Source: an uncultured Verrucomicrobiae bacterium
GTDB taxonomy: Bacteria > Chlamydiota > Chlamydiia > Chlamydiales > Rhabdochlamydiaceae
Length of the DNA: 64,000 bases
Direction: 5' to 3'
Assembly (NCBI GenBank): GCA_963718565.1
Contig: OY970364.1
Location: 576,001 to 640,000, forward strand
Under the pieces are notes generated by a model. The model saw only the letters and a list, made by a program, of their open reading frames with translations. It was not told the DNA's origin and made no database searches. Both the position numbers and the translations under genes were made by a program. Below, in pieces: positions 52,094 through 52,367 of the stretch; the first letter of the stretch is position 1, and each line of letters begins with the position of its first letter.

Positions 52094-52187
52094 ATATTTT
52101 ATTTTATTTAAAAATGATCTCTAAGAGATCCTTTTTAGGGTTTGATGGGAGACAAAAATGTAAGAGGATAAAAAAGATATATTGGCG

Positions 52188-52316
52188 CTAAGCGCCAAAA
52201 TAGAAATAAAAAGAAGAAAAATAAAAGCGGCAAGACTCAAAGGAGCGTTCAATCCCTCGGACCCTTTCAAGCTCAGATGTGATTCTATCTTGTGTTTTCA
52301 TAGATAAAACAGTCAT
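52188..52316 (-). CDS. Putative Phe/Tyr-sensing leader peptide (42 aa)
   Basis: MTVLSMKTQ...CRFYFSSFYFYFGA; lies between the promoter and the chorismate mutase remnant. Confidence 0.65.
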   Translation of the reverse strand: MTVLSMKTQDRITSELERVRGIERSFESCRFYFSSFYFYFGA

Positions 52317-52337
52317 TGCCTTCTTTTTAGAGCCTTC

Positions 52338-52367
52338 ATTATAACAGAAGAATGTTGACAATGTCAA
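52338..52367 (-). promoter_or_regulatory. Promoter of the leftward aro/phe operon
   Basis: TTGACA-18-TATAAT with extended -10 TG; -35 lies within the palindrome TTGACAATGTCAA. Confidence 0.65.

Follow-up and report, generated by a model that had tools for sequence, protein, structure and literature searches.

In the mycobacterial polycysteine short open reading frames (ORFs; Ms5788A), pairing is predicted between the codon tract and the Shine-Dalgarno (SD) sequence, and the mutational and reporter data described by Canestrari et al. (bioRxiv 10.1101/834739) support control through the SD sequence and polarity on the next gene. In the LEU element upstream of leuA in Actinobacteria, as presented by Seliverstov et al. 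(2005, PMC1262725), a run of Leu codons pairs with the leuA SD sequence. At the entry step of aromatic biosynthesis, the aroR leader of Corynebacterium glutamicum, which contains Phe-Tyr-Phe, lies upstream of the DAHP synthase gene aroF (Neshat et al. 2014, as cited in PMC11802643), and in the account of PMC11802643 it is a transcription attenuator that responds to Phe but not to Tyr limitation. In chlamydiae, ribosome-mediated attenuation is discussed mainly for trpRBA of Chlamydia trachomatis, at least in the treatment of PMC7755916. Here we describe a candidate Phe/Tyr leader that precedes the aroBAKC genes in a 64,000-nucleotide (nt) stretch of a genome of the Chlamydiota (contig OY970364.1, positions 576,001 to 640,000; hereafter the window); our full-text literature searches retrieved no description of this leader in chlamydiae.

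In relatives of the organism, the leader resembles aroR, as that leader is portrayed in the source cited above, in that a Phe/Tyr leader peptide stands before a DAHP-synthase operon and would place the aromatic entry step under ribosome-mediated control. It differs from aroR in its longer run (6-8 Phe or Tyr codons), in having no conserved terminator and in bearing no sequence relationship to it. We consider it rather probable that the element is a genuine Phe/Tyr leader sensor which acts on translation in relatives, and that in the genome of the window (G000) it is a relic whose promoter serves aroBAKC. This reading is built on the conservation of the leader, its coding signature, the loss of the genes behind it and the pairing predicted in relatives.

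All leader elements and aroBAKC lie on the minus strand, and the coordinates given are positions in the window. A sigma-70-like promoter with 12/12 consensus matches (52338..52367) is made up of TTGACA (52367-52362), an 18-nt spacer and TATAAT (52343-52338), with an upstream TG (TG-n-TATAAT). The count of promoter-like sites in the region was ordinary (3, versus 1.9 +/- 1.5 in shuffles), but a perfect match was unusual, and the positions of TTGAC and TATAAT were invariant in a 14-sequence alignment of the genus. Read from the ATG at 52316, the leader ORF (52188..52316) encodes 42 amino acids (aa), MTVLSMKTQDRITSELERVRGIERSFESCRFYFSSFYFYFGA, with the C-terminus FYFSSFYFYFGA. The start kept in relatives is the second ATG, at 52301, which gives 37 aa (MKTQ...FYFYFGA), and the upstream ATG was found only in the genome of the window and in G004; the TATAAT-to-ATG distance in the window leader is 36 nt. 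The regulatory codon run, as read from the sequence and its translation, is F Y F S S F Y F Y F, in TNY codons (52197..52226). It is followed by a hairpin (hairpin B, TTGGCGC-TTA-GCGCCAA, 52182..52198, -11.3 kcal/mol) with the stop codon TAG in its loop, by a G-poor, pyrimidine-rich spacer with 2 G in 51 nt (52131..52181), which includes a conserved CTTACAT block (52164-52158), and by a further hairpin (hairpin E, GATCTC-TTA-GAGATC) with an A run on one side and a T run on the other (52106..52137, -9.2 kcal/mol including the flanking A:U pairs), the core of which (52130-52116) is followed by ATTTTT. Much of this had been seen in a preliminary description of the locus, and the promoter, the density of Phe or Tyr (8/10 codons of FYFSSFYFYF), the G-poor tract and the hairpin with its T run are present as claimed there. 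The 42-aa ORF is likewise present, with the qualification that relatives keep the second start, and the stop-codon hairpin exists with a 7-bp stem and a 3-nt loop, not with the 8 bp and 1-nt loop that had been given.

The coding nature of the run was analyzed on an alignment of 34 leaders. Seven TNY codons precede the hairpin, and non-majority letters were distributed over codon positions 1, 2 and 3 as 20/80/54, the variation consisting mostly of TTY/TAY/TCY swaps and synonymous changes, i.e., of T/A/C exchanges at the second position (Phe/Tyr/Ser) and of T/C at the third. Phe plus Tyr made up a fraction of 0.76 in the reading frame of the leader and of 0.13 and 0.43 in the two alternative frames, and the last three codons of the run were Phe in 28/34, Tyr in 31/34 and Phe in 30/34 leaders. 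Behind the run, Gly follows in 32/34 and Ala in 27/34; the stop is the next codon, in the hairpin loop, in 24/34, and the frame extends 3-7 codons further in 10/34. The reading frame of the run carries on through the GGC GCN codons to the stop in every leader. These patterns argue that the leader ORF is a genuine, conserved leader gene, and the fixed positions held by each residue suggest that both Phe and Tyr are sensed. The proposal that a leader-peptide sensor is built on Phe and Tyr codons, for which conservation of the run upstream of orthologous operons had been named as the check, is supported by codon-level conservation before orthologous operons in 34/34 aligned leaders; the alternative of a mere T-rich tract, which had been set against it, does not agree with a run that is kept in frame in all of them.

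The 739-nt region matched 15 of the 18 other genomes of the genus, its leader part being the best-conserved stretch, and the three genomes with no match (G005, G007 and G008) are also without an orthologous DAHP synthase (DAHPS). A leader ORF of the same design, with the F/Y run, Gly-Ala and the GGCGC hairpin, was read in 14/14 genus relatives inspected, in addition to the window (MKTQVTTTSGLDAIHGANSVGLCRSYFSSFYFYFGA in G010, for example); G012 and a second contig of G004 (L036) stood outside this reading. A pattern scan for the last codons of the run plus the hairpin picked up the element in two further families and, within the same family, in four additional genera, and 10 of the 24 genomes with a match had only chance or coding matches. 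A less biased count started from the DAHPS orthologues (E<=1e-100), which were present in 40 of a phylum sample of 400 genomes, all of one order. The upstream regions of 39 of these were examined, leaving out G378, where DAHPS lies at a contig edge. A F/Y leader with the GGCGC hairpin was found upstream of 31 of the 39, in families f1, f5, f10, f23 and f26 (examples are MSKNARITSSTRLVLGTQLAPAYSFYFFYFGA in f5, MNKKKLKISHLQTICQQGPLASASAFSFYFFYFGA in f10 and MVSMEQKRSNSQTLSTQNSSAPAWAVYFYNYFGA in f23), with only 3-4 F/Y codons in G139 and G180. The leader was absent from 8/39 regions, among them those of G190 and G096, in which another gene abuts DAHPS and the leader could lie further upstream. 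In G020 (L117) a DAHP_synth_1 paralogue, 31% identical, was also noticed.

A promoter with at least 9/12 consensus matches was detected upstream of 33/34 leaders. In 9 of these 33 the -10 hexamer ends 10 nt or less before the leader ATG (G258-type, f5 and G001-G003), and these leaders are therefore probably translated from leaderless mRNAs, a likeness to the mycobacterial Cys sensors. The leader ORFs are 27-43 aa long, except that of G018 (92 aa, with an insertion). Within the genus, a small hairpin (GGAG-N-CUCC) lies inside the leader ORF, at about 52246-52260 in the window and in columns 45-61 of the genus alignment; G011 has AGAG/CUCU at this place, a compensatory change, and outside the genus no such hairpin was seen.

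In twelve genus relatives, the leader is followed by genes for a 337-aa DAHP synthase, a 92-aa chorismate mutase, a prephenate dehydratase (PDT) with an ACT domain, a prephenate dehydrogenase (PDH) and an aminotransferase, and then by aroB. The proteins of G010 were assigned to the Pfam families DAHP_synth_1, CM_2, PDT+ACT, PDH and Aminotran_1_2, with a further NCBIfam assignment for DAHPS. Genes for the entry step, for both terminal branches and for the common pathway thus all lie behind the leader, as would fit a Phe/Tyr sensor.

We then analyzed whether the leader RNA could reach the DAHPS ribosome-binding site in 31 leaders of relatives (G290, G070, G180 and G127 were found late and left out), taking an SD partner as significant at p<=0.05 against 150 shuffles; the shuffles for the search for partners of the run were mononucleotide ones. 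The SD region had a significantly strong upstream partner in 14/31 leaders, and this partner was the F/Y run in 11 of the 14, including 8/8 f5 leaders, and the segment behind the hairpin in the other 3. The run alone, as a partner, reached p<=0.05 in 7/31, with 6 cases among the 16 leaders with a run-to-start distance of up to 110 nt and 1 among the 15 longer ones. In 11/31 leaders the own SD region paired with the run better than at least 95% of the SD regions of other families did. The clearest arrangement is that of G258, where the purine-rich stretch with the DAHPS ribosome-binding site finds its complement in 20 nt of the F/Y run (UUUUCUAUUCUUUUUAUUUU; 20 bp, -19.7 kcal/mol); the same arrangement was found in G397, G386 (-17.7 kcal/mol), G291, G337, G380, G314, G365, G331, G178 and G033. 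Each SD flank mirrors the order of Phe, Tyr, Ser or Asn codons of its own lineage, and the covariation of the run-SD helix cannot be counted in an alignment because the register of the helix differs per lineage. When the run was masked in silico, the unpaired probability of the SD sequence rose from 0.00 to 0.45 in G258, from 0.00 to 0.26 in G397 and from 0.20 to 0.61 in G363. In the genus of the window, the SD sequence is predicted to be mostly paired in 11/11 relatives (unpaired probability 0.02-0.30). Pairing of the SD or start of the first gene with leader RNA was predicted in relatives only, and it cannot occur in the window because the SD sequence and the gene are deleted there. On these predictions, translational attenuation is the best-supported read-out in relatives.

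The ancestral job of the element, i.e., of a promoter, a leader gene of roughly 37 codons that ends in a Phe/Tyr run, and a GC hairpin at its stop, would have been to tie the expression of a Phe/Tyr 'supra-operon' (DAHP synthase, chorismate mutase, PDT, PDH, aminotransferase, aroB, aroA, aroK and aroC) to how much charged tRNA-Phe and tRNA-Tyr is available. With the F/Y codons hungry, a ribosome would stall on them and free the DAHPS SD sequence, so that the first gene is translated, and a fed ribosome would run through and leave, so that the run-SD helix closes again; the GC hairpin may cap and nucleate this helix. The downstream genes would be drawn into the response by transcriptional polarity, which may come about as Rho loads on the G-poor spacer. 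The sign of such a response would suit a biosynthetic operon. Stalling, its sign and polarity, together with the present lack of function, are parts of the scheme that we infer. The scheme is like that of the polycysteine leaders, as far as the preprint cited above describes them, in that the run pairs with the SD sequence of the next gene, that a stalled ribosome is proposed to free it and that polarity acts downstream. It is unlike theirs in using Phe and Tyr instead of Cys in another phylum, in the conserved GC hairpin that holds the stop codon, in the putative longer relay that would replace direct pairing in the genus of the window, and in being a prediction from sequence alone. With the LEU element, in the form given in PMC1262725, it shares a codon run that pairs with the SD sequence of the following gene, extra internal helices and a mechanism that comparison alone does not settle; the LEU element, as proposed there, differs in its Leu codons, its pseudoknot and its phylum.

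In the genome of the window, the genes that the leader would have controlled are present as fragments only. The deletion junction (52086..52096) was located by alignment with G004, G002 and G003. The ancestral TATATGGATAT, which normally runs on into AAGGTATTTATG (the SD sequence and start of DAHPS), is here fused to C-terminal codons of DAHPS, and the ATG at 52093 is a by-product of this junction. What the preliminary description took for the first gene, starting at that ATG, proved to be a 63-aa chance frame (52093-51902) over fragments of DAHPS and chorismate mutase. By comparison with the five operon proteins of one relative, the remnants were identified as residues 319-336 of 337 of DAHP synthase (52032..52085, 89% identity to the G010 DAHPS); residues 10-48 of 92 of chorismate mutase (51914..52030, CM_2 positions 4-43 of 80); two PDT fragments (51814..51918; residues 6-16 and 244-271 of 274); and class I/II aminotransferase fragments of about residues 166-213 and 347-376 (51653..51880, in pieces at about 51880-51734 and 51742-51653). 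The PDT pieces, at 51918-51886 (E 0.056) and 51894-51814 (E 0.009), are weak matches, but they are collinear with the gene order of relatives; no PDH remnant was found between the leader and aroB in this comparison. The interval of about 440 nt between the leader and aroB hence consists of collinear fragments of Phe/Tyr genes, and the first intact gene downstream of the leader is aroB (51650). Behind the hairpin, ATATATCTTTTTTATCC (52166..52181), read directly from the sequence, is the relic of an anti-SD segment that in close relatives is ATATACCTTTTTATCC and pairs with GGATATAAGGTAT of the DAHPS ribosome-binding site.

The genome, one 2.28-Mb contig with an estimated completeness of 95%, holds no PDT or PDH domain anywhere, and the fragment is its only CM_2 match; for these reasons the Phe/Tyr branch from chorismate was not found in it. 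The organism appears unable to make Phe and Tyr, which it would need to take up from outside. The claim that the leader outlived its Phe/Tyr genes is therefore borne out, with fragments only here, intact genes in relatives and no PDT or PDH in the genome. At least five deletions removed the DAHPS ribosome-binding site together with all five Phe/Tyr genes, and the remaining leader most likely works only as promoter and 5' leader of aroBAKC, which now feed the tryptophan, folate and quinone branches. The RNA that remains offers the F/Y run no significant partner (-13.4 kcal/mol; mean of the shuffles, -17.2). We read the leader as a relic because its pairing target has been deleted, and Phe/Tyr control of aroBAKC in the window is in doubt for the same reason and for the want of a significant partner of the run.

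The genome of G001 is also without the five genes and has kept the leader. Its leader groups with those of G002 and G003, in which the operon is intact, and the leader of the window groups with G004 and G013; since the two group with different relatives, the losses in G000 and G001 look independent. In G018 (L033, about 1102-1380), some 165 nt have been inserted in frame into the leader ORF, which totals 92 aa, and tyrA, the aminotransferase gene and aroB behind the leader are broken; apparently the pathway is being lost in a third lineage of the genus as well.

Hairpin B and the spacer were also compared among relatives. A hairpin right behind the run forms in 34/34 leaders (-6.7 to -12.1 kcal/mol), and its sequence is mostly invariant. 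In the 34-sequence hairpin alignment, in which MAFFT misregisters the 3' arm where loop lengths differ, 77.5% of the cells are paired, versus 35-46% when the alignment is slid, and no measure exceeded shuffles. Compensatory changes are few: GGCU/AGCC in G017 and G386, AGCGC/GCGCU in G016 and GGCGU/ACGCC in G331. A motif lies 30-35 nt behind the F/Y run in 22/31 leaders of several families. It reads CUUACAU(C) in the genus of the window (52158-52164 in the window copy) and CUAUCAGAUYC elsewhere, and the pattern was defined after the sequences had been seen; it resembles the 3' tail of 16S rRNA (anti-SD-like). The fold of the whole leader RNA had z = -2.25 against shuffles, mainly from the two hairpins of the window. 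In the genus of the window the spacers are longer, with roughly 80-180 nt from the leader stop to the gene start and extra small hairpins, and the run can pair with purine-rich segments (UGCCGUUCUU with AAGAGCGGUA in G010 and G015; the run with GAAGAGGAAAAACGA in G002 and G003). Relay models for the genus, in which the run pairs with AAAAGAGCGG or GAAGAGGAAAAACGA, or which use the anti-SD-like CCCUUACAU and UUCCCUU blocks, were considered, and none could be shown.

Several observations weigh against a translational Phe/Tyr sensor that has become a relic here. The evidence for pairing is thermodynamic prediction, significant in under half of the leaders, and 17/31 leaders have no significant SD partner. 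The best downstream partner of the run, wherever it lay, had a median z of -1.2 and was clearly significant only in G258, G397, G013, G017 and G260. In the genus of the window, SD pairing was significant in only 2/11 relatives, G013 (-15.2 kcal/mol, p=0.007) and G003 (-13.1 kcal/mol, p=0.027), and in both the partner is the segment behind the hairpin (AAUAUACCUUUUUAUCC with GGAUAUAAGGUAU), outside the cover of a ribosome stalled on the run. Among the 11 genus relatives, masking of the run had no consistent effect on the SD sequence: the changes were modest and confined to G017, G011 and G006, which weakens the link from stalling to opening for that genus. The stop-codon hairpin was the sole helix recovered by RNAalifold, both from the 14-sequence genus alignment and from 11 short leaders, and covariation in hairpin B was nothing above shuffles. 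The window itself contains two terminator-like hairpins with T runs, its leader is fully intact (promoter 12/12, open frame and hairpin), and the retention of the leader after the apparent second loss, in G001, could mean that a function persists.

The last points could speak for a transcription attenuator of the pheL/trpL type that still works, in which hairpin B or E terminates, an antiterminator forms on stalling and aroBAKC stand under Phe/Tyr control. The leader is like that of E. coli pheL-pheA (Rfam Phe_leader) in its short ORF and in a codon run that would sense charged tRNA, and in E. coli trpL the stop codon also lies in a hairpin loop. Terminator-like sites number 3 in the region, against 1.0 +/- 0.8 in shuffles, two of them between the leader and aroB, and the leader is intact and was kept after the apparently independent losses in G000 and G001. 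However, pheL uses an intrinsic terminator and an antiterminator, and no such conserved pair was found here: of the pheL-type features looked for, the locus has the codon run, but neither a conserved terminator nor an Rfam family match. The U-tracts after hairpin B range from good (window and G065) to none (G258), with CAUACCCCC in G258 and AUUAUAUUCAACC in G010, and hairpin B was rejected as a terminator because its U-tract is not conserved. Inspection by eye showed small hairpins that overlap in some genus relatives, with no U-tract. Hairpin E is a weak terminator-like element, with a stem of 6 bp and only 3 G-C pairs, and is restricted to the genome of the window, the closest relative (G004) having a different sequence there. 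Neither single-sequence folding nor RNAalifold returned an antiterminator mutually exclusive with these hairpins, the F/Y run has no significant partner in the window, and an Rfam search of the region at E<=10 gave four sub-threshold matches to unrelated families and no leader family. We consequently regard a working pheL-type attenuator as improbable, and the pheL-type read-out put forward in the preliminary description finds no support among relatives, where neither a conserved hairpin with a U-tract nor a conserved competing antiterminator was found. It is also unlikely, in our judgement, that the element has been exapted, with stalling on the run still modulating read-through into aroBAKC via hairpin E and its T run or via Rho on the spacer; if it were so, chorismate supply for tryptophan, folate and quinones would be tied to the Phe/Tyr supply of the host, and the two apparently independent losses that kept an intact leader (G000 and G001) would reflect selection.

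The composition of the spacer bears on another proposal, namely that Rho-dependent attenuation was the primary read-out ancestrally, and perhaps is at present, with Rho loading on the G-poor, C-rich spacer; whether it then gets to the polymerase would depend on translation of the leader and on the state of the ribosome-binding site downstream. Over the 45 nt that follow the hairpin, the 31 leaders contain on average 7.9% G and 26.5% C, and 23 of them have 9% G or less; the window spacer has its 2 G in 51 nt, the factor is encoded in the genome, and polarity is invoked for the mycobacterial case as the preprint presents it. Composition alone is weak evidence, however, since genomes and leaders are AT- and pyrimidine-rich, and nothing was found by which a stalled ribosome could cover the tract or keep it sequestered. 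Rho is moreover compatible with sequestration of the SD sequence and more likely a second layer to it, and as the primary read-out we think it doubtful. The hairpin can also be viewed as a palindrome (TTGGCGC-N3/4-GCGCCAA) that, with the motif behind it (AUCAGAU or UUACAUC), forms a site for a trans-acting factor, either a DNA operator or the target of an RNA-binding protein, the ORF being secondary. That the conservation of hairpin B lies in its sequence and not in covariation, and that the motif recurs at a fixed distance behind the run, would suit such a site, although the motif was set post hoc, the few compensatory changes retain the stem and the GGC GCN codons and the stop keep frame with the run throughout. 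No candidate regulator was identified, and the codon-level conservation of Phe and Tyr would be left unexplained; we hold this explanation to be very improbable. Still harder to credit is that the ORF encodes a functional small hydrophobic protein instead of a sensor: its N-terminal half is conserved within the genus (MKTQDR.TS.L) but not between families, its length varies from 27 to 43 aa if the 92-aa form of G018 is set aside, its position is fixed before DAHPS, and the part that is conserved is the TNY codon run and an RNA hairpin.

The aroBAKC genes of the window (47623..51650, minus strand) are intact and comprise aroB (51650-50532), aroA (50535-49249), aroK (49252-48710) and aroC (48720-47623), and a divergent aroD-aroE fusion gene (52390..53892, plus strand), kept in relatives, serves as the synteny anchor on the other side. 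Directly downstream of aroC lies a gene for a 568-aa WD40-repeat (beta-propeller) protein (45792-47498, minus strand), a domain type that is common in eukaryotes. Elsewhere in the window, a complete tryptophan operon, trpR-trpEGDCFBA with a second DAHP synthase (19297-26872, plus strand), is intact: a TrpR-like ORF (19297-19587, identified by eye) comes first, then trpE, trpG, trpD, trpC, trpF, trpB and trpA, and the second DAHP synthase (25856-26872, NCBIfam PRK08673), which is 42% identical to the operon type, closes it. The retention of the common pathway (aroBAKC) is explained by this second DAHPS, which closes an intact trp operon in the same window. Tryptophan synthesis, with an entry enzyme of its own, has been retained while the Phe/Tyr branch was lost. 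Outside the window, the genome contains 5 genes for TLC-family nucleotide transporters (4 full-length and 1 partial match), which fits an energy-parasitic intracellular lifestyle; no match to the Chlam_PMP family was found in the genome. Taken together, these transporters, the aroD-aroE fusion and the fact that the 400 sampled genomes of the phylum belong to a single order, one genus of which has many genomes of 1.0-1.2 Mb, point to an environmental representative of the Chlamydiota.

Taken at its probable value, the element is of a known type of mechanism, with a leader that our searches did not find in print and that is probably vestigial here. Little has been charted of how chlamydia-like bacteria regulate their genes, and a F/Y leader before the aromatic operon in five families would mean that charged tRNA is sensed at the ribosome in these bacteria. 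The simple form, with direct pairing between the regulatory codons and the next ribosome-binding site, would extend the mycobacterial mechanism to another phylum and to another pair of amino acids. The window also offers a dated snapshot of genome reduction, in which the biosynthetic genes lie in fragments while the sensor and its promoter survive.

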